The notes beneath the pieces are model-generated. The model did no database searches. It saw only the letters and a program-made list of their open reading frames with translations, and was not told the origin of the DNA. From assembly GCA_964554805.1 (NCBI GenBank), contig CAZKPX010000001.1, positions 124,818 to 188,817 of the forward strand: 64,000 bases of DNA. The letters are read 5' to 3'. Shown piece after piece: positions 2,133 to 64,000 of this stretch. Position numbers and translations under genes: made by a program. The number at the start of each line of letters is the position of its first letter. Positions within the stretch are counted from its first letter, which is position 1. The stretch comes from an uncultured Candidatus Saccharibacteria bacterium. Lineage in GTDB: Bacteria; Patescibacteriota; CAZHWT01.

Positions 2133-2687
2133 TTACTTTCCGACTGCCTTGGCTGCTTTACCTGCTTTGCGGCGGATAACTTCACCAGCATAGCGGATAC
2201 CCTTGCCCTTATATGGTTCTGGTGGCTTAACGGCGCGGATCTTGGCGGCTGATTCGCCGACTAATTGCTTGTCGATACCAGAAATACTGATCTTGGTGTT
2301 TTCGGCTACAGCGTAGGTGATTCCTTGTGGAGGAGTCATAAGAACTGGGTGAGAAAAACCAACCGATAATTGGAGCTTTGACCCCTGCATCGAAGCTCGG
2401 TGACCAACACCGGCCATTTCCAGATTCTTGGTGAAGCCTTCTGATACTCCGGCAATCATATTTGCAACAAGAGTTCGTGATAGACCCCACAGAGCTGCGG
2501 TCTGCTTGGTTGGACGTGCGATGGCAACTACAACTTGATTATCTTCAAGTTTAACTGAGATTTCAGGCAGAATCTCTTGAGACAGCTGACCTTTTGGTCC
2601 AGACACCTTAACCAATGTACCTTCGATTTCGACTGATACACCATTAGGTATAGATATAGGCATTTTTCCGATACGTGACATTACCAA
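2133..2687 (-). CDS. rplF: 50S ribosomal protein L6
   Basis: MSRIGKMPISIPNGV... L6 N-terminus with two repeated domains. Confidence 0.9.
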   Translation of the reverse strand: MVMSRIGKMPISIPNGVSVEIEGTLVKVSGPKGQLSQEILPEISVKLEDNQVVVAIARPTKQTAALWGLSRTLVANMIAGVSEGFTKNLEMAGVGHRASMQGSKLQLSVGFSHPVLMTPPQGITYAVAENTKISISGIDKQLVGESAAKIRAVKPPEPYKGKGIRYAGEVIRRKAGKAAKAVGK

Positions 2688-3076
2688 ACCCTCCCTAGGA
2701 ACTCGCCACCGACACCCTTTTGCTTGGCTTCTTTGCCAGTCATGATACCGGATGGAGTGGAGAGGATAGCGATACCCATACCGCCTAAGACGTTTGGAAT
2801 ATCTTTGGCACCGATATACTGGCGACGACCTGGAGTGGAAGCGCGTTCAATGCGAGTGACTGCGGGACGACGACCATCATAGCGCAAGGTAATAACAAAC
2901 ATCTTGCGACCTTTACGGTCTTCGATCTTGGAGTCCTGAATAAAATTGGCTTGCAATAGAACCGCCAGAACAGACTCCTTCATCTTGGAATAAGGAGCTT
3001 CAACCTGTTCGAGGTGGGCCATGTAGCCATTTCGAATTCTTGTAAATAAATCAGCAATTGGATCAAGTGTCATCAT
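2681..3076 (-). CDS. rpsH: 30S ribosomal protein S8
   Basis: DPIADLFTRIRNG motif typical of S8. Confidence 0.9.
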   Translation of the reverse strand: MMTLDPIADLFTRIRNGYMAHLEQVEAPYSKMKESVLAVLLQANFIQDSKIEDRKGRKMFVITLRYDGRRPAVTRIERASTPGRRQYIGAKDIPNVLGGMGIAILSTPSGIMTGKEAKQKGVGGEFLGRVW

Positions 3077-3082
3077 AATAGT

Positions 3083-3268
3083 TTACCAGCTAGATTTTGT
3101 AATACCTGGGATCTGTTCCTTTAGAGCTAGCTCTCTAAAGCAGATACGGCAAATGCCGAAATCGCGCATATAACCACGAGGTCGACCGCAGCGTCGGCAG
3201 CGATTGTGAACTCGAGTGGTGTATTTAGGAGCTTTGAGGCTTTTTTCAATAAGTGCTTTTTTGGCCAT
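3083..3268 (-). CDS. rpsZ: 30S ribosomal protein S14, type Z (zinc-binding, 61 aa)
   Basis: 61-aa protein with CRRCGRPRG...CRICFRE, the CxxC...CxxC zinc form of S14. Confidence 0.9.
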
Positions 3269-3281
3269 ATAGGTAATTCCT

Positions 3282-3845
3282 TTAAGCGGTCTTCTCCAGC
3301 GGTAATCCCAGCTTGGTTAGGAGAGCTTGAGCATGCTGAGGGTCTTGTGACTTAGTAACAAGCGTGATTTGTAAGCTACGAGTCTTGTCGATACGATTAG
3401 GATCAATTTCCAAGAATACGCCCTGCTCGGTAACACCGAAGGTATAGTTACCGCTTCGATCAAAGCCATTTTTGGATAAACCTTGGAAGTCGCGAGTACG
3501 AGGCAAAACAATGCTGAACAGCTTGTCGGTAAAGTCCCACATACGGGCACCGCGAATGGTTACCTTGGCGCCGATCTTGTCGCCCTTGCGGAGCTTGAAG
3601 CCGGCGATAGCCTTTTTGGCTTCGGTAACAATTGGCTTCTGACCAGTAATGATGGTCAAATCTTGAACCGAGCGCTCAATTTCATCCTTATTACCTTGAG
3701 CACGACCGAGGCTCATGTGAACCATGACTTTCTCAAGTCTTGGTGCGGCCATAGGATTGGTAAGCTTGAATTCCTCGATGATGGCAGGAGCTATTTCGTT
3801 GTTATATTTGTCTTGTAATCGTGACATATTGTTTACCTTTTGCAA
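3282..3845 (-). CDS. rplE: 50S ribosomal protein L5 (true start probably the internal MSRLQDKYN near 3827)
   Basis: L5-like sequence and spc-operon order. Confidence 0.9.
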
Positions 3846-3856
3846 TGGTATACCCT

Positions 3857-4180
3857 TTAAAGTGTAGCTCCGCTGGCTTTGCTCTTGCGGACTTTTTTGC
3901 CGTCAATGATGGCGAATGAGACCTTGGTTGGCTTGCCAGTTGATGGATCAACTAGAGCCACGTTGGAGATGGCAATTGGCATGGTCTTGTCGACAATACC
4001 GCCCGGATCGCGCTGATTAACTGGCTTGCGGTGACGCTTGACCATGTTAATACCTTCAACCAGAACTTTGCTATCTGCAGGCATGACTCGGAGAACCTTG
4101 CCTTGCTTGCCTCGGAATTTGCCTGAGGTTACTATGACTGTGTCGTCTTTTTTAATACGTAGAGCTGACATGTTATACAA
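3857..4180 (-). CDS. rplX: 50S ribosomal protein L24
   Basis: KOW-type motif [21 protein letters not shown]. Confidence 0.9.
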
Positions 4181-4541
4181 CCTCCGGAGCGAGAGAAATA
4201 ATTTTCATATAGCCGCCGTCTCGAATTTCACGAGCGATAGGACCGAAGATACGAGTTCCGCGTGGGTTTTTGTCCTTGTCGACAATAACGGCTGCATTTT
4301 CGCTGAAACGAACATAAGAGCCATCATCGCGACGAACTTCTTTACGAGTTCGAACAATCACGGCCTTAACGATTTCGCCATCTTTGACGCTACCGTTTGG
4401 ATTGGCACCTTTAACAACGCCAACGAACTGCTCGCCAAGACGGGCTTTCTTTTTACCGGTTCCGCCCGGGACGTTAATGCACATTAAACGCTTGGCGCCG
4501 GTGTTGTCTGCAACATTTAAGTAAGATCTGTTCTGAATCAT
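4173..4541 (-). CDS. rplN: 50S ribosomal protein L14
   Basis: [17 protein letters not shown]..., an L14 signature N-terminus. Confidence 0.9.
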
Positions 4542-4571
4542 GGCGATTACCTATCTTTGACTTTGCGGTCC

Positions 4572-4916
4572 TTACTTGGCCTTTTTCTTGGCAGCTGCTT
4601 TGGGCTTGGCAGCGCTGGCGGATTTTGCTTTAGTAGCTACTTTGACCTTAGTAGCAGAAGCTTCGCGGATAATTTCGGTAACTACCCAGCGCTTTAGCTT
4701 AGACAAGGGGCGGCTTGATCGAATACGAACAGTGTCGCCAATCTTTGGCTGAACTTCGGCTGAATCGGATAAATACTTGGTGGTCCAGCGGAAGCGCTTG
4801 TGGTAGAGAGGATGTACCTTGAAGGTTGTAACTTCAACGGTAACTGTTTGTTGCATCTTGTCGGATGTAACAATTCCTACCATGGTTTTTTGGGTGGCTG
4901 GTTGCTGTTGGTTCAT
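4572..4916 (-). CDS. rpsQ: 30S ribosomal protein S17 with Lys/Ala-rich C-terminal tail
   Basis: S17 OB-fold core (VGIVTSDKMQQTVTV...HPLYHKR), followed by a KAKSASAAKPKAAAKKKAK tail. Confidence 0.85.
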   Translation of the reverse strand: MNQQQPATQKTMVGIVTSDKMQQTVTVEVTTFKVHPLYHKRFRWTTKYLSDSAEVQPKIGDTVRIRSSRPLSKLKRWVVTEIIREASATKVKVATKAKSASAAKPKAAAKKKAK

Positions 4917-5116
4917 GCTAATTCCTTTACCTGTATCAAAGACTTGAGTTGGGCAATTTGACGACGAAGAAGACCGTGGCTGCGGACATTGTTAATAGTG
5001 CCCTGAGCGCCCTTCATTCGGTTGTCGATCAGCTCATGCTCCAGCTTAGCTACGTCTTGACGTAGTTCAGCAGCAGTTTTTTGTCGAGCTTGATCTAGTT
5101 GTTGTCGCTTCATCAT
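4913..5116 (-). CDS. rpmC: 50S ribosomal protein L29
   Basis: 67-aa helical protein in the conserved position between rplP and rpsQ. Confidence 0.8.
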   Translation of the reverse strand: MMKRQQLDQARQKTAAELRQDVAKLEHELIDNRMKGAQGTINNVRSHGLLRRQIAQLKSLIQVKELA

Positions 5117-5120
5117 ATAA

Positions 5121-5555
5121 TTAATCCTCTTCAGCCTTTACTGGTTCGCTGTCACGAGCGACGATGAGTGTGCCCACAGAAAGTTTGTGAGAAGCGCGTC
5201 GCATGGCTTCGCGAGCCAATTCTGGAGATACTCCAGACATTTCAAATAACATAGTTCCAGGACGGACAACGGCGACGAAGTGATCAACTGATCCCTTACC
5301 GCTACCCATTCGGACTTCGGCTGGTTTTTTGGTGACTGGCTTGTCAGGGAAGACTCGAATCCAAATCTTACCACCACGCTTGGTGTGGTGAGTCATGGCG
5401 CGACGAGCAGCTTCGATCTGACGAGCAGAAATCCAACCGCATTCAGTGGACTTGAGTCCAAATTCACCGAAGTTTAAAGTTGATCCTCGCCAAGCCATGC
5501 CTTTCATACGGCCACGGAAGGTTCGTCGATACTTTTGCTTAGATGGTTCAAGCAT
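5121..5555 (-). CDS. rplP: 50S ribosomal protein L16
   Basis: L16 sequence ([19 protein letters not shown]...). Confidence 0.9.
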
Positions 5556-6237
5556 GGCGAGGTCCTCCTTGTCGACGAGCTGGTTGTGGAGCAGATGAGT
5601 CTACATTCTGAGCCTGATCCTTATCGCGATGGATCCAAACCTTAACACCGATGGTGCCATAGGAGGTCATAGCTGTGTCGGAAGCGAAGTCGATATTGGC
5701 ACGAAGGGTGTGGAGTGGGATAGTGCCGATACTCTTTTTCTCACTTCGAGCAATATCAGCGCCATTGAGACGACCGCTGATCATAATCTTGACTCCCTTG
5801 GCGCCTGCTGACATGGTGCGCTCGGCAGTCATGTTAATAGCACGACGAGGGGACATACGACGCTCAATCATCTCAGCAACATTGCGGGCTACCAACGTAG
5901 CGTACAAATCAGGGCGACGGACTTCAATGATGTTGAGCTTGAGCTTTTCACCATTTAGGCGAGACTGCAATTCAGCCTTAAGAGCTTCGGAGCTAGCACC
6001 GCCTCGACCAATAACCATACCTGGCTTGGCGACGTGGACATTGATAGTAATTTCGTTCACAGAACGCTCGATCTCAACACGCTGACAACCAGCATTCTTG
6101 AGCTTTTTGGTGATGTAATCACGCAATTCCAAATCCTTGTGCAACAACTCAACAAATCGCTTGCTGTCGAACCAGGTTGAACTCCAGTTTTTGGTTAAAG
6201 CTAAGCGAAGGCCTAGCGGGTGTGTTTTATGACCCAT
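5548..6237 (-). CDS. rpsC: 30S ribosomal protein S3
   Basis: [12 protein letters not shown]... KH domain followed by the S3 C-terminal domain. Confidence 0.9.
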
Positions 6238-6719
6238 TATTCTGTACCTTTTTCTGTGCTGCTTTTAGCAGCGGTGACGCGCGACGAGCGACGAGCGACG
6301 GGTTTGGTTTTCTTGTCGCTTGTTGCTTGTTGCTTGTTGCTTGCTTTTGCTTCGGCTAAGGCGGCGCGGCGCTTGCCGAGAATCAGTGGCTCATCTGTCA
6401 ATATGACGCGGACATGAGATGTGCGCTTCATTATAGACATGCCACGACCGCGAGAAGCTGCGCGCATTCTCTTGAGTGTTGGCCCTTCGCCAATTTCAAG
6501 AGTACGGATCCGCAGATTGCTCACAGGTAACTGATGATTGTTAGTAGCGTTTGCAATTGCAGATTGTATCACATCTTGGACAGTTTTGGCAGCCCTCAAA
6601 TTCATGAGGCTCAAAGCGTTGACGGCTTCGGTTGGTGAAAGGTCACGAACTGCAGTGGCTACAAGGCGAACCTTGCGTGGCGACTGACGGACGTACCGAG
6701 CGGAGGCAACAACGTTCAT
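6237..6719 (-). CDS. rplV: 50S ribosomal protein L22 with basic C-terminal extension
   Basis: L22 core. The C-terminal tail is encoded by the GCGACGAG repeat region at 6271-6345. Confidence 0.85.
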   Translation of the reverse strand: MNVVASARYVRQSPRKVRLVATAVRDLSPTEAVNALSLMNLRAAKTVQDVIQSAIANATNNHQLPVSNLRIRTLEIGEGPTLKRMRAASRGRGMSIMKRTSHVRVILTDEPLILGKRRAALAEAKASNKQQATSDKKTKPVARRSSRVTAAKSSTEKGTE

Positions 6720-6721
6720 GG

Positions 6722-7003
6722 TTATCTACCTGCCTTTCCGGCCTGCTTCTTGGCGTGAGTACGGAAGGTGCGAGTTAGGGAGAATTCGCCTAGCTTGTGG
6801 CCGACCATTGACTCCGTGACGAAGACTGGGACATGAATACGGCCATTGTGGACGCCGAAGGTATGTCCGACCATGTCAGGGCTGATAGATGAAGAGCGAG
6901 CCCAAGTCTTGATGACTTCTTTGGTGCCAGCTTGATTCATTTTCTGAACCTTGATTATTAATTTTTCGTCCAAATATGGACCTTTTTTGCTAGATCGAGA
7001 CAT
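6722..7003 (-). CDS. rpsS: 30S ribosomal protein S19
   Basis: [15 protein letters not shown]... S19. Confidence 0.9.
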
Positions 7004-7005
7004 AA

Positions 7006-7833
7006 TTATTTCCTACGACGAATAATAAGTTTATTTGAAGCCTTATTCTTCTTGCGAGTGCGGAGACCCATGGCTTTCTTACCCCAAGGTGTCTTAGGTG
7101 CCATACCGATACCGGACTTACCTTCACCACCACCATGAGGGTGAGCATTGGGGGCCATAGCCACACCGCGAACAGCTGGGCGAATACCTTTGTGGCGATT
7201 GCGACCGGCTTTGCCGATTTTGATCGTACCGTGCTGAGTATTGCTGACGACACCAATTGTAGCACGGCAAGACAAGTTAACCTGACGAACCTCGCCACTT
7301 GGCAATCGAAGCTGAGCTTTGCCGTTGTCTTTTGACATCAATTGGACAGAAGCTCCGGCTGAACGAGCCAGCTGGGCACCCTTGCCTGGAATAAGTTCAA
7401 TGTTGTGAACCACAGTACCGAGTGGAATCTGCTCTAGAGGCAGTGAGTTGCCGTTGGCGATTTCAGACTCTGGACCAGAACTGATTGGTTGACCAACTAC
7501 CATTTTGTCGGTAGCGATGATGTATCGCTTGTCGCCATCAGCATAGGCGACCATGGCGATATGAGCCGATCGGTTTGGATCGTACTCAATAGTCTTGACG
7601 ACGCCTGGCACACCAGTCTTGCGACGAGCGAAGTCAATTTCGCGATAGAGACGCTTGTGACCGCCGCCTTGGTGACGAACAGTGATGCGACCTTGGTTGT
7701 TACGGCCGGCCCGTTCTGACTTACCTTTGGTCTTGCTCTTGAGAGGTTTGACGTTCTTGGTTAGTTCGGGGTGTGTTAGTCCAGTGCGGTGGCGCTGACC
7801 TGGAGTAAGTGGTCGATAAATCTTGATAGCCAT
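7006..7833 (-). CDS. rplB: 50S ribosomal protein L2
   Basis: 275 aa with L2 motifs (GGGHKRLYR..., [10 protein letters not shown]). Confidence 0.9.
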
Positions 7834-14718: not shown

Positions 14719-14750
14719 GAGCGACGAGCGACAGGCTACGGGCGACGGGG
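14719..14750. repeat. Copy of the dispersed GCGACGAGCGACRGG heptad-repeat element
   Basis: GAGCGACGAGCGACAGGCTACGGGCGACGGGG. Related copies lie at 6271-6302, 34489-34520, 50001-50038, 51860-51889 and 60165-60194. Confidence 0.6.
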
Positions 14751-14822
14751 AAGAAATTGCTCAAAACTTAGGCAAATAATACCCCTCCTCTAGACCTCGG
14801 GGTTGTTTGCTAAATGGTGGGG

Positions 14823-34488: not shown

Positions 34489-34520
34489 AAGCGACGAGCG
34501 ACGTGCGACAGGCGACGAGG
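34489..34520. repeat. Copy of the GCGACGAGCGACGTG... heptad-repeat element
   Basis: GCGACGAGCGACGTGCGACAGGCGACGAGG, immediately after the stop of the 551-aa gene. Confidence 0.6.
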
Positions 34521-34545
34521 TTGAGTTTGAAATATTTTGATGTGG

Positions 34546-49903: not shown

Positions 49904-52081
49904 TTATTCAGCCTGAGGTTGAGTGTCTGTTGGGGCGTCGGATGAGTCGACTGAATCAGGGGCGATGGCGGCTGATTTGGGGGCCTTGGTCGCTTCGGTG
50001 GCGGAGCGACGAGCGACAGGCGACGAGCGACGAGCGGGTGCTGGCTTGGCGGCTGCGCTGGCTGGGGCGGTGATTGGGCGGCGAGGAGTCGAGGTGCCGG
50101 TGCCGCGCATTTCGATGAGAACTGGCAGAACAATTGGGGTTCGGTCGGTTTCTTGCTTGAAGTACTTGCCGAGACGATCTTGAATGCGAGAGCGGATAGT
50201 TCCCCACTCTTGGTTCTTGGTTTGCGGATCGGTGATAACAGAGCGAGCAATAGAACGAGCTTCAGCCATTAACTTTTCGTTGAGACGAGCGTAAACAAAG
50301 CCGCGAGTTTGGACTTCGACTTCGCCAATCAGTTCTTTATCTTTGTTGAGTGTCGCACCGACGATGAAGACACCGGAATCGGCTAGCTGTTTGCGATCGG
50401 CAATGACAACTTCGCCAATGTCCCCTACTCCCAGACCATCGACCATGACGGAGGTATATGGGTGCTCTTCGCCCAGCTTGGCGTTGCCTTGGTTATCAAA
50501 GAGGACTTCCTGACCCGCGACAACCGTGAAAATGTGACCTTCAGGGTATCCCATTTTTTGGGCCATCTGCTTGTAGGCCTTGAGTTGACGCATCTGACCA
50601 GAGATAGGTACTAGGTATTTGGCTTTGACTAAAGCAATAGTTGTTTTGAGTTCTTCGGCGGCGGCATGTCCGGATACGTGAAGATTGTTCATAATATCGG
50701 AATAAGCGATGGTGGCGCCCAGGTCGGTCAGCTCGTCAATGATATCGTTGATGCCGCTTTCGCTACCAGGAATTGGATCGGCGGAGAAAATGACTTTGTC
50801 TTCCGTCTTAATGGTAAAGAGCTTGTGTTGACCTGATGTCAGTCGGGCTAAGGCCGAACCTTCTTGGCCATACGCACCAGTTAGAATGATTAATTGCTGA
50901 TCATCTGGGTAATCAGAGATAGCAGTATCGCGAACGACAACGCCGTCAGGGATTTGAGCATAGCCCAAACGTGTGGCGATGCCCATGACGTTATCAATGC
51001 TTCGACCAGCAAAGGCAACCTTGCGGTTGTAGCGCATGGCCACATTGATGGCTTGCTGCATACGGGTAACGTTGGAAGAGATGGTTGTTAGGAAGACGCG
51101 GCCTTTGGCGTTGCGCATTTCGGTATCCAGGCGATCTTCTACAACTGCTTCGGATGGGGTGTAGCCGGGTTTTTCGACACGTAGACAGTCGGACATGAGG
51201 GCCAGAACGCCTTCGCCACCGGCGCGAGCCAATTTGTCGACTTCGATAATAGTACCGTCAACGCTAGTCCAGTCATACTTGTAGTCACCGGTGTGGATAG
51301 TTGATCCAATTGGCGTCTTGATGACATAGCCAAAGGTGTCTGGGATGGAGTGGTTGACGCGGAATGGATTGAGGGTGAAATGACCGAAGGTGTATTCTTG
51401 GTCTGGCTCTATTTCGTGTAAGTCTAATTTGGCTCGGAACTCTGATAGTTTGCCTTTGATTAATTCAAGGGCAAAGCGAGGAGCGTAGATTGGAACATTC
51501 ATTTTGGGTGCTAAATAAGGGACAGCACCGATATGATCCTCGTGACCATGGGTGATAACGAGGGCCTTGATGCGATGTAGTTTATCCTTTAGATAGGTCA
51601 TATCTGGGATAACAATATCGATACCAAGCATGTCGCTAGAAGGGAAGCCCATGCCGCAGTCAACAACAATAATGTCGTTGCCATACTCGTAGACAAACAT
51701 GTTTTGGGTGACAAAACCATTACCTCCTAATGGTAAGACTTTTAGGACTGGGGCGCCTTCAGGATTGAAGGACCCTTGCTCGTTGAGAGACTGTTGTGCC
51801 ATACGAGCACGATTGATTGGCTGATGGCGATTGCGTCGGACTGGAGCGCCGCTGTTGGCGGGAGCGACAGGCGACGTGCGACGAGTAGGAGCAGCACCTG
51901 TACTACCTACGGCTTTGGGGGCTGCAGGTCGAGCAGTTGGGCTGGTAGCACCTGTTGGGGTGGTTGGAGTCGAAGCTGAAGTAGGAGCGCTTGGCTTTGA
52001 GCCGGCGCTGGCATTGATGCCATTGTTGGTCCGAGGACGGCCGCCTGATCTATTTGGGTTTGGTCGGAAATATTCTGACAT
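49904..52081 (-). CDS. rnj: Ribonuclease J (beta-CASP metallo-beta-lactamase) with low-complexity N- and C-terminal extensions
   Basis: VITHGHEDHIGAVPYL motif and a beta-CASP region. Ser/Pro/Ala/Arg-rich tails of about 130 aa (N) and about 90 aa (C) contain GCGACGAG repeats at 51860-51889 and 50001-50038. Confidence 0.85.
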   Translation of the reverse strand: MSEYFRPNPNRSGGRPRTNNGINASAGSKPSAPTSASTPTTPTGATSPTARPAAPKAVGSTGAAPTRRTSPVAPANSGAPVRRNRHQPINRARMAQQSLNEQGSFNPEGAPVLKVLPLGGNGFVTQNMFVYEYGNDIIVVDCGMGFPSSDMLGIDIVIPDMTYLKDKLHRIKALVITHGHEDHIGAVPYLAPKMNVPIYAPRFALELIKGKLSEFRAKLDLHEIEPDQEYTFGHFTLNPFRVNHSIPDTFGYVIKTPIGSTIHTGDYKYDWTSVDGTIIEVDKLARAGGEGVLALMSDCLRVEKPGYTPSEAVVEDRLDTEMRNAKGRVFLTTISSNVTRMQQAINVAMRYNRKVAFAGRSIDNVMGIATRLGYAQIPDGVVVRDTAISDYPDDQQLIILTGAYGQEGSALARLTSGQHKLFTIKTEDKVIFSADPIPGSESGINDIIDELTDLGATIAYSDIMNNLHVSGHAAAEELKTTIALVKAKYLVPISGQMRQLKAYKQMAQKMGYPEGHIFTVVAGQEVLFDNQGNAKLGEEHPYTSVMVDGLGVGDIGEVVIADRKQLADSGVFIVGATLNKDKELIGEVEVQTRGFVYARLNEKLMAEARSIARSVITDPQTKNQEWGTIRSRIQDRLGKYFKQETDRTPIVLPVLIEMRGTGTSTPRRPITAPASAAAKPAPARRSSPVARRSATEATKAPKSAAIAPDSVDSSDAPTDTQPQAE

Positions 52082-60245: not shown

Positions 60246-61442
60246 TTAGCTTTGTTCGTTTTCTTCAGTAGATTCTTCGGTTGCTTGTTCGATATCATCG
60301 GCCAATTCTTCAACTACTTCTTCAGTAATGGTTGGTTCTTCTTCAGCGGCTTCGATGATGGCTTCGTCTAGTTCCTGGTCAGGATCTGGTTGAGTGGCTT
60401 GGGCTTCGACAGTGGCTTCGATGGAGGTTTCGTCGGAGACTCGGGTATCCTGGGCGTCTTGGGTATCCTGGTCATCTTGGGGGGCTGCAGAAACATCGGC
60501 GGCAGCGGTTTCGCCGCTGATGTCGATGCGGAAACCGGTTAGTTTGGCAGCCAGACGAACGTTTTGGCCTTCTTTGCCGATAGCCAGAGATAGCTGATCG
60601 TCCATGACGACAACTTTGGCTTCTTTGCCTTCGGTATCAACCTTGATGTCAATAGCTTTGGCTGGAGACAGGGCGGCTACGATGAAACGCTCTACATCTG
60701 GACTCCACAGAATAAGATCGAGCTTTTCACCGTTCAGTTCATTGGTGATAGCCTGGACGCGAACGCCTTTTTGACCAACACATGAACCGACTGGGTCGAC
60801 GCCTTCTTGGTTGGAGGTGACTGCTACCTTAGAGCGATTACCTGCTTCGCGGGCAATGGCTTTGATTTCAACTGCACCGGAGGCTACTTCTGGGACTTCT
60901 AGCTCAAATAGAGCAGCTAGCAGATTAGGATGTGAGCGGGATAGGATGATTTCCTGACCACGTGGACCATCTTTGATTTCTGAGACATAGACCTTTAAGC
61001 GCTGGTTGAGACGATAGTTTTCGCCTTGAGCTTGCTCTTGCGGAGGCATAATACCGATGGTACGACCGATGTCGAGCATCCAGTTTGGGCCTTCTTTGCG
61101 CTGGATCATGGCAGAGATAACGGTGCCGATTTTTTTGCCGTAGTCGTCCATGATGGCTTCTTTTTCGGCTTCACGGATGCGCTGGAGAATAACTTGCTTG
61201 GCGGTCTGGGCAGCAATGCGGCCAAACCCAGCAGGAGTTACATCTTTGCCATCGAGAAGAATGCGAACTTCGCCGGTGTCTGGATCGACATCAGCAATCA
61301 GTTCTTGTTCTTCGGTAATCTCGCCAAAATCGCGGCGATAGGCTGCTAACAAAGCATGACGAAGTGATTCTAAAATAATATTTGGATCGATGCCGCGCTC
61401 GGAAGCTACTTGATTGAGGGCGGCCATAAATTCTGTACGCAT
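60246..61442 (-). CDS. nusA: Transcription termination/antitermination factor NusA (no AR1/AR2; acidic C-terminal tail)
   Basis: N-terminal domain, S1, and two KH domains. The C-terminus is Glu/Asp-rich. Confidence 0.9.
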   Translation of the reverse strand: MRTEFMAALNQVASERGIDPNIILESLRHALLAAYRRDFGEITEEQELIADVDPDTGEVRILLDGKDVTPAGFGRIAAQTAKQVILQRIREAEKEAIMDDYGKKIGTVISAMIQRKEGPNWMLDIGRTIGIMPPQEQAQGENYRLNQRLKVYVSEIKDGPRGQEIILSRSHPNLLAALFELEVPEVASGAVEIKAIAREAGNRSKVAVTSNQEGVDPVGSCVGQKGVRVQAITNELNGEKLDLILWSPDVERFIVAALSPAKAIDIKVDTEGKEAKVVVMDDQLSLAIGKEGQNVRLAAKLTGFRIDISGETAAADVSAAPQDDQDTQDAQDTRVSDETSIEATVEAQATQPDPDQELDEAIIEAAEEEPTITEEVVEELADDIEQATEESTEENEQS

Positions 61443-61570
61443 ATTTAATTTTCCTTTCGGTATTCTATTGTTTGTCTGGAGTAGTCTCGCTTATTTGTAA
61501 AAATGAAAAAAGGCGGTCTGCTTGCGCCCGCCAACTAAAGATACTACATCAGACTGGTTATTTCTGGGTG

Positions 61571-61599
61571 ATTATAGCACAGAAAGCGACTGGAGACAA
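61571..61599 (-). promoter_or_regulatory. Sigma70-like promoter for nusA (TTGTCT, 17-nt spacer, TGcTATAAT)
   Basis: Minus strand: cTTGTCTccagtcgctttctgTGCTATAATcacc, about 130 nt upstream of the nusA ATG. Confidence 0.5.
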
Positions 61600-61654
61600 G
61601 CTGCAGGAGACTAAATCTTTTCAGTGATTTAGTTTTGAGTTTTGAAAAATTAGG

Positions 61655-61740
61655 CGGTTTTAATAAGGTGCTCGGAAATGAGACCAAAGTCGTCTTTGGA
61701 AATGCCGATCAGGCCGTGACGGAGGGTGAATTGCCAGCCC
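61655..61740 (-). pseudogene. Duplicated 3' fragment of the EVE-domain gene (about 88% identical to 62775-62870)
   Basis: The reverse complement translates in frame to WQFTLRHGLIGISKDDFGLISEHLI, matching the C-terminus of the 62770-63204 gene. There is no start codon and no upstream similarity. Confidence 0.45.
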
Positions 61741-61880
61741 TTCCAACATAATAGTGTCTCTCTGAGGATGACTGGCATATTTAAGTTATGCTATTTTGTC
61801 AATTACAATACATCAGCGCAGCTTCAGTTTCAACCCAGTGTGTAACTTTTTATAGGATAGAAATTGACGAGGAAGTGGGA

Positions 61881-62723
61881 TTAAAATTTGATGGCGCTGA
61901 AGATAGTTTGGCCAATTGTGGAGTCTTGGGGCTGACCGTCGATCTGCTTGAGCTGAATGACATAGTTGCGCTGATTGGCCGCAACTACATAAACATCTTC
62001 GGTTATATAGCTATCTGTGTCTGAATTATAGGAGGTTTGAGTCAGACTGATGGCTTGCTGATTGCCCAGTTTGAAAGAGTGCTGATTGGTGATTTTGTTA
62101 GGCTGTGGGTTGAATGTAGCTCCATCGCGCCATACTCCAACTGGAGCCTCCTGCCAGGATTTAGTATATATCTGAGCGAGTTGGTCTAGACTCAATGAAT
62201 CAACTAGAGGGCTGCTACAAATGACTCGAATAGAGGTGCCTTGACTACTATCGGATAGCTTGTAGCTAACTGAGGCAGTAGCGACTAGACCGAGACCCTT
62301 ATATTCAATGCCGGGCGTAAAAATATTAGACTTCCCCTCATAACTCCACCCCCCTTCTCTTTGATTGATAACAGGAGGAATAGCCAGGCTGACTTGACAG
62401 GAATTAGTGTCTGGTCCTTGATAGGTCCAGCCTTGAGGCAAGGCTGCTGTCTGCGAGGCAGATGTGGTTGTTTGCTGAGAGTTGGGTGTGGGGGTTGGTG
62501 CTGAAGGTATTACTTTGGGTTGTGAATTAATTTGATAAAACGCGGCTACCGCAACAGCTCCGGCGACAGCGAGTGTGATAATGGCAATTAGACTGATGAT
62601 AGGCCATTTGCTGGTGGACTTGGTTGATGGCTTTGGTGATATTTGAGTCTGCGATTGTGCTGATTGAAGCGGCACGATGGATGCTTGGCTTTGGTCGTCG
62701 AGCGAAGATTGAGGATCGTCCAT
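61881..62723 (-). CDS. Hypothetical membrane-anchored/secreted protein (280 aa; N-terminal TM, Ser/Thr/Gln-rich linker)
   Basis: ORF with IISLIAIITLAVAGAVAVAAF TM. Flanked by about 90-bp direct repeats. Confidence 0.5.
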   Translation of the reverse strand: MDDPQSSLDDQSQASIVPLQSAQSQTQISPKPSTKSTSKWPIISLIAIITLAVAGAVAVAAFYQINSQPKVIPSAPTPTPNSQQTTTSASQTAALPQGWTYQGPDTNSCQVSLAIPPVINQREGGWSYEGKSNIFTPGIEYKGLGLVATASVSYKLSDSSQGTSIRVICSSPLVDSLSLDQLAQIYTKSWQEAPVGVWRDGATFNPQPNKITNQHSFKLGNQQAISLTQTSYNSDTDSYITEDVYVVAANQRNYVIQLKQIDGQPQDSTIGQTIFSAIKF

Positions 62724-62769
62724 ATGTTAATTAGAACAGAAGCTGCAATATGAAGCAAACACGTAAGGG

Positions 62770-63204
62770 TTATTTTGCCAATAAGGCTTCGGATATCAGA
62801 CCAAAGTCGTCCTTGGAGATGCCGATGAGGCCGTGGCGGAGGGTGAATTGCCAGTTTTTCTTGTCAGGAATGAACTTGAGCTGATCGATGAGGGGTTTGA
62901 TATCAGTTGGGTTGGAGGAAAGATAGTGGAATGGCCGGCGATAAGGCTGGTAGTGTTCGTTGACAGTTACTTTGGTGATTTTACCTTCTTCGACTTGACC
63001 GATAGAAATGAAGGCCTCGACAGGCGTTTTGTCATTGAGTGAGACTTTGGGAGCGTAAAAAATGACCCAGTCATCTTTTTTGATTCGGGCTAAGGGTGCA
63101 CGTTTGCCATGGCCGATTTGTAAAAATTCGCCGGCTTGGCCTCTTTGGGTATGTTCTTGGGTGGCGACGGAGATCCAGTATTTCATAGAGATACATTGTC
63201 TCAT
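62770..63204 (-). CDS. Putative EVE (PUA-like) domain protein; probable start at MKYWIS (63186)
   Basis: About 138-aa protein with MKYWISVATQEH...WVIFY...pattern suggestive of an EVE/PUA-like fold. Assigned by resemblance only. Confidence 0.4.
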   Translation of the reverse strand: MRQCISMKYWISVATQEHTQRGQAGEFLQIGHGKRAPLARIKKDDWVIFYAPKVSLNDKTPVEAFISIGQVEEGKITKVTVNEHYQPYRRPFHYLSSNPTDIKPLIDQLKFIPDKKNWQFTLRHGLIGISKDDFGLISEALLAK

Positions 63205-63279
63205 GGATGGGCAAGAGGGTCGCCGGCTGGCGGATTAAGGAGGCGTGAGGAGGAGGAGGAGAAGGAGGAGTTTATTAAT

Positions 63280-63316
63280 GTAGAAATGCGAAAGCGCCGG
63301 GGGGGTTCCCCGGCGC
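63280..63316 (-). terminator. Terminator (GCGCCGGGG-GGGTT-CCCCGGCGC plus U tract) downstream of the 80-aa coiled-coil gene; copy 1 of a duplicated module
   Basis: 9-bp GC stem. The minus strand continues TTTCGCATTTCTAC. Confidence 0.5.
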
Positions 63317-63358
63317 CGTGATGGTGGCTTGGTTAGGCAGCTGATGACTATCAGGGAT

Positions 63359-63601
63359 TCAGGACTTTGTGTCCATTGGCTGCACGGTCTCGGCCATAAG
63401 AGCTATGCCTTGCTGGAGCAGTGCTTTGACCTCTGCGATTTCCATCCGAAGTCGCGCCACCTCGTCAGTGAGGATTTTCGCCTCTTTGACTTCCCGCTGA
63501 AGCAGCCCAACCTGATCGGCGAGTCTTTCCGTTCCGCCCCTCAGCTCTCGGACTGCGCCAACGACGAGGTCGACATCAGTCGAATCGATAGTTTTTGCCA
63601 T
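63359..63601 (-). CDS. Hypothetical small coiled-coil protein (80 aa from MAKTIDSTDV)
   Basis: ORF with heptad-like charged repeats (EVKEAKILTDEVARLRMEIAEVKALLQQ). Confidence 0.4.
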   Translation of the reverse strand: MAKTIDSTDVDLVVGAVRELRGGTERLADQVGLLQREVKEAKILTDEVARLRMEIAEVKALLQQGIALMAETVQPMDTKS

Positions 63602-63744
63602 CTTAAAATCTTTCACGAAGGCCTCAGTCATAAGCACGATGCTTAAGACATACATCTGTTATTCTATGCTACTATGGGTTATTTGTCAATTTAATTCTTT
63701 GAGGTTTTACATTCTTAGCTTTTTGCAAACACAAGCAGATGCTC

Positions 63745-63785
63745 GGTTTAAAACGAGAAAGCGCCGGGGAGATTTCCCCGGCGCT
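63745..63785 (-). terminator. Terminator (GCGCCGGGG-AGATTT-CCCCGGCGC plus U tract); copy 2 of the duplicated module, downstream of the partial gene
   Basis: The same stem sequence and flanks (GTGATGGTG..TTGGTT) as at 63280-63330. Confidence 0.5.
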
Positions 63786-63817
63786 GTGATGGTGTTTGGT
63801 TTGTGTCCAATGATGGA

Positions 63818-64000
63818 CTATTCCTCTGAGATGAGGTCGATAATCTGCTCCATGCGAGGGAGCGGGTTGTCGGGAGTGATGGCCAGATGCTGCAGCCAAG
63901 TGCTCGGCGCAGAAATCCTGGTCGCCCGACCGATCGTCATCACCCTGACGGTCTTGTTTTCAGCTTCAGTTTCTTCAGAAGCACCAAGCTGAATCAGGTT
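63818..64000 (-). CDS. C-terminal 60 codons of a gene that extends beyond the window end (hypothetical)
   Basis: Reverse-complement frame from 64000 reads NLIQLGASEETEAENKTVRVMTIGRATRISAPSTWLQHLAITPDNPLPRMEQIIDLISEE and ends at a stop at 63818-63820. Confidence 0.4.
   Translation of the reverse strand, partial: NLIQLGASEETEAENKTVRVMTIGRATRISAPSTWLQHLAITPDNPLPRMEQIIDLISEE

Follow-up and report, generated by a model that had tools for sequence, protein, structure and literature searches.

A duplicated EVE-gene 3' end upstream of nusA in a Saccharibacteria genome as the probable scar of recombination between diverged alleles

The 64-kb window analyzed here, a stretch of contig CAZKPX010000001.1 from an uncultured Candidatus Saccharibacteria bacterium, carries a gene of 280 amino acids (61881-62723) that lies between two direct copies of the 3' end of an EVE-domain gene, a short distance upstream of nusA. 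All genes relevant to this locus are on the minus strand. The two copies, referred to as A and B, appear from their sequences to be two diverged alleles that were brought together, not one sequence that was duplicated on insertion. The arrangement is probably the scar of homology-facilitated illegitimate recombination (HFIR), or 3'-end displacement, mediated by transformation. That recombination between alleles left this scar is held with more confidence than the one-sided-homology mechanism in particular, and we regard the repeat as a scar without a function of its own, as no evidence of function was found.

Copy A (62770-62854) comprises the last 28 codons, stop included, of an intact EVE gene of 138 amino acids beginning MKYW (62770-63186) and ends in WQFTLRHGLIGISKDDFGLISEALLAK before the stop. 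The gene matches Pfam PF01878 with E=3.5e-10 and 40.5 bits against a cut-off of 23, covering profile positions 1-144 of 145, and its homologs in related genomes are 64-68% identical. An in-frame ATG at 63204, upstream of this start, would yield 144 amino acids, and the PF01878 match spans residues 8-139 of that longer version; the gene is called as 138 amino acids in a Logan contig of the same locus. As the locus reads on the minus strand, the copy that the initial annotation had rightly taken for the genuine EVE C terminus and called upstream is the one at higher coordinates. Copy B (61650-61737) is an orphaned EVE tail, 29 codons long with its stop, WQFTLRHGLIGISKDDFGLISEHLIKTA, which aligns with EVE over 27 amino acids at 89% identity by tblastn and has no PF01878 match when taken alone. 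Between the two lie a spacer of 46 nt from the EVE stop to the start of the 280-amino acid gene (62724-62769), that gene itself, and a unique spacer of 143 nt from its stop to copy B (61738-61880).

The direct repeat is well defined. An ungapped core of 66 nt (61672-61737 and 62789-62854) is identical at 60 of 66 positions (91%) with a spacing of 1117 nt, and in a blastn search of the whole window the copies align over 76 nt at 88.2% identity (E=1.5e-21). Over the true extents of both copies, stop codons included, 74 positions are identical among 91 gapped columns, and the longest exact runs they share are 18 and 14 nt. The pair of repeats around the 280-amino acid gene, as described in the initial annotation, is thus borne out. 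Of the limits given there (61655-61745 and 62775-62870), the outer 8-16 nt (61738-61745 and 62855-62870) lie outside the repeat. An 18-mer of the repeat occurs exactly twice in the window against 0.03 expected, and a repeat scan of the whole window returned the EVE-tail pair as the only long direct repeat that is not of low complexity. With two copies only, there is no sign in the window of a larger repeat family unrelated to EVE.

The similarity ends sharply at the base preceding a Trp codon, and the breakpoint 61737/61738 is also the right end of the 143-nt spacer. Upstream of 61737 and 62854, similarity to the EVE body did not exceed that of shuffled sequences, either colinearly (374 of 1000 shuffles) or locally (190 of 500 and 52 of 500). 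Degraded EVE homology upstream of copy B was considered and set aside, the CCxxTCATC..TCAG match and the inverted repeat I3 both being at chance level. The 143-nt spacer shows no similarity to the relatives and none to the EVE body above shuffle expectation, and presumably belongs to the inserted DNA. Likewise, the 46-nt spacer has no similarity to the sequence 3' of EVE in relatives.

Comparing the two copies, it is the nature of their differences that speaks most clearly about their origin. Both encode the same 22 residues, WQFTLRHGLIGISKDDFGLISE, in the EVE frame, after which the last six to seven codons differ, giving the tail ALLAK and stop in copy A and HLIKTA and stop in copy B. The statement in the initial annotation that the other copy encodes the same peptide therefore holds for the 22 residues and not for the tail. 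Both tails resemble the poorly conserved C termini of EVE homologs. Over the 22 shared codons there are seven DNA differences, all of them at third positions and all synonymous. By the Nei-Gojobori method, this corresponds to 7 changes over 15 synonymous sites (synonymous divergence, dS, of ~0.73) and 0 over 51 non-synonymous sites (non-synonymous divergence, dN, of 0). In a simulation of random substitution, the probability that all changes are synonymous was ~1e-4 for six to seven hits and 0.004-0.015 for three to four hits, the latter being the case in which copy B alone drifted. These all-synonymous differences indicate that copy B diverged inside a functional EVE gene under selection and was truncated only recently. 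In addition, the nusA dS between this genome and the congeneric contig L056 is 0.82, with the NusA N termini 97% identical over 136 residues. As the EVE-tail dS is close to this value, the donor and recipient alleles would differ at about the species-to-genus, or congeneric, level.

The orphan copy lies directly in front of the conserved nusA region. Its stop is ~50 nt before the -35 element of the nusA promoter, TTGTCT-17-TGcTATAAT (61571-61599; 10/12 in the promoter scan, with an extended -10), and it is contiguous with this conserved promoter and with the leader that follows. The leader contains a hairpin, GGCGG-N11-CCGCC followed by T6 (61506-61532), which is kept in relatives. Next come nusA (60246-61442; Pfam NusA_N and KH_5), the conserved right-hand border of a variable interval, and then infB. 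Searches with NusA and EVE placed this genome among Patescibacteria labeled Saccharibacteria, and homology with L056 begins at ~61605, at the nusA promoter. All relatives share a promoter followed by a short, GC-rich hairpin and a T-run, the whole lying well ahead of the nusA start codon (L056, 4880-4990; L048, 7410-7500; L002, ~5700-5790; L059, 637-735; window, 61506-61599). The leader hairpin may act as an attenuator. NusA autoregulates through termination in other bacteria.

One relative appears to preserve the arrangement that would be expected before the insertion. The initial annotation had proposed to look whether EVE abuts nusA where the 280-amino acid gene is absent. The contig L059 (795 bp) carries an EVE ortholog (P0003, 64% identical) whose stop is followed by 17 nt, TTGACC-N17-TATACT, and a T-run hairpin, GGCGG...CCG. 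This segment has matches in L063 (E=3.5e-5) and L048 (E=1e-3), ~190-260 nt ahead of nusA in each, and it can be aligned to the promoter and leader layout that all relatives have in common. By sequence, L059 therefore seems to represent the empty site, with EVE directly abutting a nusA-type promoter and leader. Since EVE abuts the promoter in L059 and copy B is likewise placed in the window, the joint between copy B and the promoter would be the resident, ancestral one, and the stretch from the tail of copy A to 61738 would be incoming DNA.

These observations can be accommodated by a single event. DNA from a related lineage, carrying an EVE allele (at least its 3' end) and the 280-amino acid gene, would have recombined into the chromosome. 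Homologous pairing at one end of the incoming DNA would have taken place within EVE or upstream of it, while the illegitimate joint at the other end would have fallen within the resident EVE gene, immediately 5' of the codon for Trp-111 (numbered in the 138-amino acid protein). The product would be an intact EVE gene with the new tail EALLAK, the 280-amino acid gene together with 143 nt of donor DNA, the old tail of 88 nt, and an untouched nusA promoter, leader and gene. Copy B would then be the displaced and now non-functional tail of an EVE allele that once lay directly before the nusA promoter. We favor HFIR because the locus combines an intact gene, new DNA, a displaced allelic 3' end in the same orientation and a sharp junction. 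From these features we infer the direction of the event (copy B resident, the tail of copy A incoming), the one-sided homology, and uptake of DNA as the route, for which natural transformation would be the most plausible process. Natural competence, with integration of DNA through recombination, is documented for Saccharibacteria (PMC10633639), and HFIR has been described in the naturally transformable bacteria Streptococcus pneumoniae, Acinetobacter baylyi and Pseudomonas stutzeri (PMC3240628 and references therein). The general idea of the initial annotation, an insertion or recombination at the EVE 3' end that left a scar, is supported, and the recombination scar that it offered as one alternative is essentially right.

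Several points weigh against this account. Neither a donor genome nor a same-species empty site was present in the databases searched, and the same databases lack an EVE allele ending ...ISEHLIKTA, so that copy B is taken as the resident copy solely from its contiguity with the nusA promoter. The data fit HFIR and a single crossover of a circular fragment alike. The shared region is only 22 codons long, which leaves a wide error on dS, and with L048 and L059 as outgroups, both of them too distant for the purpose, the polarity of the seven differences stays ambiguous. L059 is a distant relative whose contig ends before nusA, and it is tied to nusA by resemblance in promoter and leader, at moderate E-values. 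Moreover, the similarity between the sequence 3' of copy B and that 3' of the L048 EVE gene was equaled by 63 of 1000 shuffles, a marginal result that is not significant and was not taken as evidence. A metagenome scan for a donor or an empty site returned EVE relatives at 41-42% identity only, exact-protein look-ups gave matches from the same sample only, and no match to 61738-61880 or to a donor-type EVE allele was found in the collections scanned.

The interval between dnaJ and nusA, in which this locus lies, has a different gene content in every relative examined. L002 has dnaK-dnaJ, a 129-amino acid deoxyribosyltransferase-like gene and a homolog of geneX (described below) before nusA. 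In L048, dnaJ is followed by small open reading frames (ORFs), a methyltransferase, a NUDIX gene, a 139-amino acid ORF, EVE and a reverse-strand 115-amino acid ORF, and in L056 by the gene for P0014, a broken methyltransferase and a 205-amino acid ORF. L069/L070 carry dnaJ, NUDIX, methyltransferase and a reverse 197-amino acid ORF. Ahead of nusA, L063 has a restriction-modification pair, a Phd/PIN toxin-antitoxin pair and a helix-turn-helix (HTH) gene, and L068 has a 1691-amino acid protein. EVE occurs near nusA as a single gene in L048 and L059 and is not found there in L002, L056, L063, L068 or L069. On the basis of this handful of contigs, the dnaJ-nusA interval appears to be a gene-turnover hotspot in the clade. 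Seven Logan contigs (L060-L067, SRR118438xx) from several samples end 73-435 nt upstream of nusA, which suggests that these ends reflect branching of the assembly graph caused by strain-level variation at the hotspot.

A second duplicated segment adjoins the EVE gene on its other side. The upstream gene, geneX, which extends beyond the window end, has its stop at 63818 and is followed by a terminator hairpin, T1 (63751-63794). Then come a coiled-coil-like ORF of 98 amino acids (63359-63655), without a Pfam or PADLOC match, and a terminator-like hairpin, T2 (63284-63326), which is a near-copy of T1. The two hairpins, CACCATCAC[A/G]GCGCCGGGG...CCCCGGCGCTTTC, are identical at 34 of 38 positions and form direct repeats around the 98-amino acid ORF. 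In L002, a like hairpin stands after the geneX homolog, directly before the nusA promoter. The 98-amino acid ORF may therefore represent another insertion of the displacement type at this hotspot, and the T1/T2 pair together with the L002 hairpin suggests two such events in the interval. A conserved pair of a coiled-coil gene and EVE was also considered but is not supported, as no homology was detected between the 98-amino acid ORF and the 139-amino acid ORF that precedes EVE in L048.

The known routes by which a gene may come to lie between direct repeats were weighed against the machinery that they would require. The insert of ~1.05 kb holds the 280-amino acid gene as its only ORF of at least 60 amino acids, which has no Pfam match, and no integrase, transposase, excisionase or tyrosine or serine recombinase was found in the insert or in the visible flanks (EVE, the 98-amino acid ORF and nusA). 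There is no tRNA or tmRNA in seven loci scanned, no Rfam match in 61300-64000 or in four related loci, no match of the locus to phage, plasmid or viral-contig collections, and no defence match at the locus in PADLOC. Only four inverted repeats were detected, all of them weak (16-34 nt, 76-81% complementary) and none at the ends of a cassette; terminal inverted repeats and attC-like sites were not found with the insert.

Among the rival explanations, a circular DNA may have integrated by a single crossover in the EVE 3' end, either homologously (Campbell-type, from a circularized fragment of a related genome) or site-specifically (a decayed or trans-mobilized mini-island with a replacement tail), the two copies then being attL and attR. 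Direct repeats of a homologous segment around an insert are the exact outcome of a single crossover, the two longest identical stretches in the 91% core, of 18 and 14 nt, are compatible with a shared att core but not diagnostic of one, a replacement tail borne on the element would also be under coding selection and hence compatible with all-synonymous differences, and the adjoining 98-amino acid ORF is flanked by a duplicated segment as well. Against this stand the content of the insert, a single non-mobility gene in 1.05 kb, the lack of recombination genes, of a nearby tRNA and of any phage, plasmid or viral-contig match noted above, the placement of the only close cargo homolog (P0014) elsewhere without EVE repeats, and the other occupants of the hotspot, which are mutually unrelated and have no common ends. 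We consider this route unlikely. Somewhat less probable still is an old tandem duplication of EVE, in which both paralogs were long under selection before the 280-amino acid gene replaced the first ~110 codons of the downstream one. It would explain the all-synonymous divergence without horizontal transfer, but a small and redundant gene would have had to persist for long in a genome under reduction, and a second event would be needed; moreover, no relative has a tandem EVE, L048 and L059 having one each, and the single EVE gene of L059 abuts the nusA promoter. There is also a slim chance that the EVE-tail repeats are the ends of a tiny cassette that lacks a recombinase, is mobilized in trans, targets EVE genes specifically at their 3' end and brings along a replacement tail, with the 98-amino acid ORF as a second example; this would amount to an undescribed capture system that builds the dnaJ-nusA hotspot in Saccharibacteria.

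The remaining alternatives fare worse. If copy B were part of a functional small gene, namely the ORF of 42 amino acids that mechanically encloses it (61650-61778), or of a regulatory element of nusA, its open frame, its 22 unchanged EVE residues and a weak promoter-like site upstream (61833-61805) would be accounted for. This ORF has no family match and no Rfam match, its first 14 codons are unrelated to EVE, the arrangement has no homolog in relatives, whose nusA promoter and leader lack copy B, and a 28-residue tail of a PUA-like fold of ~140 amino acids would be unlikely to fold alone; a function of this kind is thus very improbable. Even more improbable is a target-site duplication, the other alternative of the initial annotation, in which a cassette or a transposition-like element would have inserted and the non-coding copy would since have decayed neutrally. 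In its favor, the insert does lie between direct repeats. Neutral decay predicts mostly non-synonymous changes, whereas 7 of the 66 coding positions differ and all seven changes are synonymous, and the C-terminal tails differ in length and sequence, which together argue against a duplication with later decay. A repeat of 85 nt is far longer than transposon target duplications, and the insert comes with no transposase or other recombinase, no terminal inverted repeats, no attC-like site and no tRNA. An assembly artefact, either a chimeric join or a misassembled repeat, is the least credible of all. The genome is metagenome-assembled and the locus lies in a strain-variable region, but the Logan contig L001 (run SRR16798008) reproduces the window at 100% over 10,120 bp spanning the whole locus, which is not proof, as reads may be shared. 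In addition, the at most 18 identical bases between the copies are under the k-mer sizes of assemblers and cannot mislead a de Bruijn graph. An assembly collapse, which the initial annotation had raised against its own proposal, or a chimera is therefore unlikely.

HFIR, our preferred explanation, can also be set beside described systems. As in HFIR, the locus has foreign DNA beside a homologous anchor, a sharp non-homologous far junction, a host from a competent group and what appears to be a donor from a related lineage (dS ~0.7). Experimental HFIR usually deletes resident DNA, whereas here the joint lies upstream of the end of the resident gene, so that 88 nt were duplicated; the one-sided anchor, and any microhomology at the illegitimate joint, would have to be assumed here, the parental molecules not having been found. 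A likeness in form also comes from the orphan 3' fragments left by 3'-end or C-terminal displacement, which have been inferred at Rhs, contact-dependent inhibition (CDI) and type VI secretion system (T6SS) effector loci (Kirchberger et al. 2017, PMC5361080); C-terminal displacement at such loci is credited there to Jackson et al. 2009. These loci share with ours an intact gene followed by inserted DNA and a same-orientation displaced 3' fragment of the former allele, a conserved coding stretch before the variable tail that is kept in the orphan, and a recombination hotspot with events that are possibly repeated, as the T1/T2 pair would be here. Unlike them, EVE is no polymorphic toxin, its variable tail of 6-7 residues has neither a toxin/immunity module nor a PADLOC match, and there is a single orphan and no array, with nothing to indicate that selection has maintained it.

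Integrative elements at gene 3' ends, such as islands, integrative and conjugative elements and prophages with their attL and attR sites, likewise leave direct repeats of the gene end around an insert and an intact target gene. In contrast, the present locus has no integrase, excisionase or tRNA, its cargo is only 1.05 kb, the same element was not seen to recur elsewhere, and the longest run of identity between the copies is 18 nt. It also differs from an integron cassette, as attC and intI are absent at the insert in repeat and Pfam scans, and from a transposon or insertion sequence, whose target duplication is short and identical, where this repeat is 85-88 nt long and 9% diverged. At the scale of the interval, the resemblance is to flexible genomic islands of the replacement or additive type, which have conserved borders and unrelated contents in each relative. 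The contents here are a restriction-modification system with a PIN/Phd pair, the 1691-amino acid protein, NUDIX and methyltransferase genes, and small membrane proteins; the setting differs in being a small-genome Patescibacteria clade sampled by a handful of contigs.

If this account is correct, the locus is a clean natural footprint of how naturally competent Patescibacteria with reduced genomes gain surface-protein genes, by recombination with sister-lineage DNA at a fixed hotspot that immediately precedes the nusA promoter, with displaced gene ends left behind. The scar would also give a relative date, as the alleles are ~0.7 apart in dS and the truncation would be recent enough for no non-synonymous change to have accumulated. 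The dnaJ-nusA interval would be a concrete locus for studying gene turnover in Saccharibacteria, or a neutral insertion site. Overall, this would be a known kind of scar, unusually readable, at a hypervariable locus in a little-studied phylum, and it points to no new mechanism or functional element.

The inserted gene, which does lie between the two copies as the initial annotation had placed it, encodes a protein with a disordered N terminus and one transmembrane helix (~residues 42-65), which a linker rich in Ser, Thr and Pro connects to a beta-rich domain at the C terminus that contains two conserved Cys residues. This domain may have an extracytoplasmic fold of the PsbP/Mog1/DcrB/LpqN type, at modest model confidence; the single-sequence AlphaFold2 model of the protein (pLDDT of 37) was uninformative. 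No match was found in Pfam, PADLOC or phage collections, and a word-indexed search with the protein returned only itself. An exhaustive HMMER search identified two remote relatives, P0014 (34% identical) and P0015 (23%). P0014, the closest homolog, comes from the congeneric L056, where its gene also occupies the dnaJ-nusA interval, although directly after dnaJ and without EVE repeats. In P0015 (L057, 271-1068), a prepilin N terminus with the N-terminal methylation motif AGFTLVEV (Pfam N_methyl, E=3e-7) replaces the long N-terminal region and transmembrane anchor of the 280-amino acid protein. By sequence comparison, the C-terminal domain of this family may also be displayed on a type IV pilin-like scaffold. 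The GC content of the insert equals that of the background, and we regard the 280-amino acid gene as a fast-evolving membrane-protein gene.

Other features were observed in the same interval of the relatives. In L048, the 115-amino acid ORF on the reverse strand between EVE and nusA (6800-7250) has multiple predicted transmembrane segments and ~60% GC in a background of 44-48%. It is compositionally foreign, with a high-GC organism as its possible source, and represents an independent insertion at the same EVE-nusA junction. L063 contains a defence-island-like segment (2147-6589) with an N6/N4 DNA methyltransferase, a DpnI-like endonuclease, the Phd/PIN pair, DUF6996/6997/7226 and the HTH gene. 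The TehB-like methyltransferase, which is intact in L048, L069 and L063, is a pseudogene in L056 (3533-4100), where it consists of a 111-amino acid ORF and out-of-frame pieces.

Elsewhere in the window, 7-nt tandem arrays (AGCGACR on the plus strand, CGTCGCT-like on the minus strand) are present at 6273-6341, 14720-14759, 34490-34529, 50005-50044 and 51856-51895, with 12 matches against 0.03 expected. Some of these arrays lie inside ORFs, and the one at 14720-14759 is ~20 nt upstream of a TTGACC-17-TATAAT promoter.

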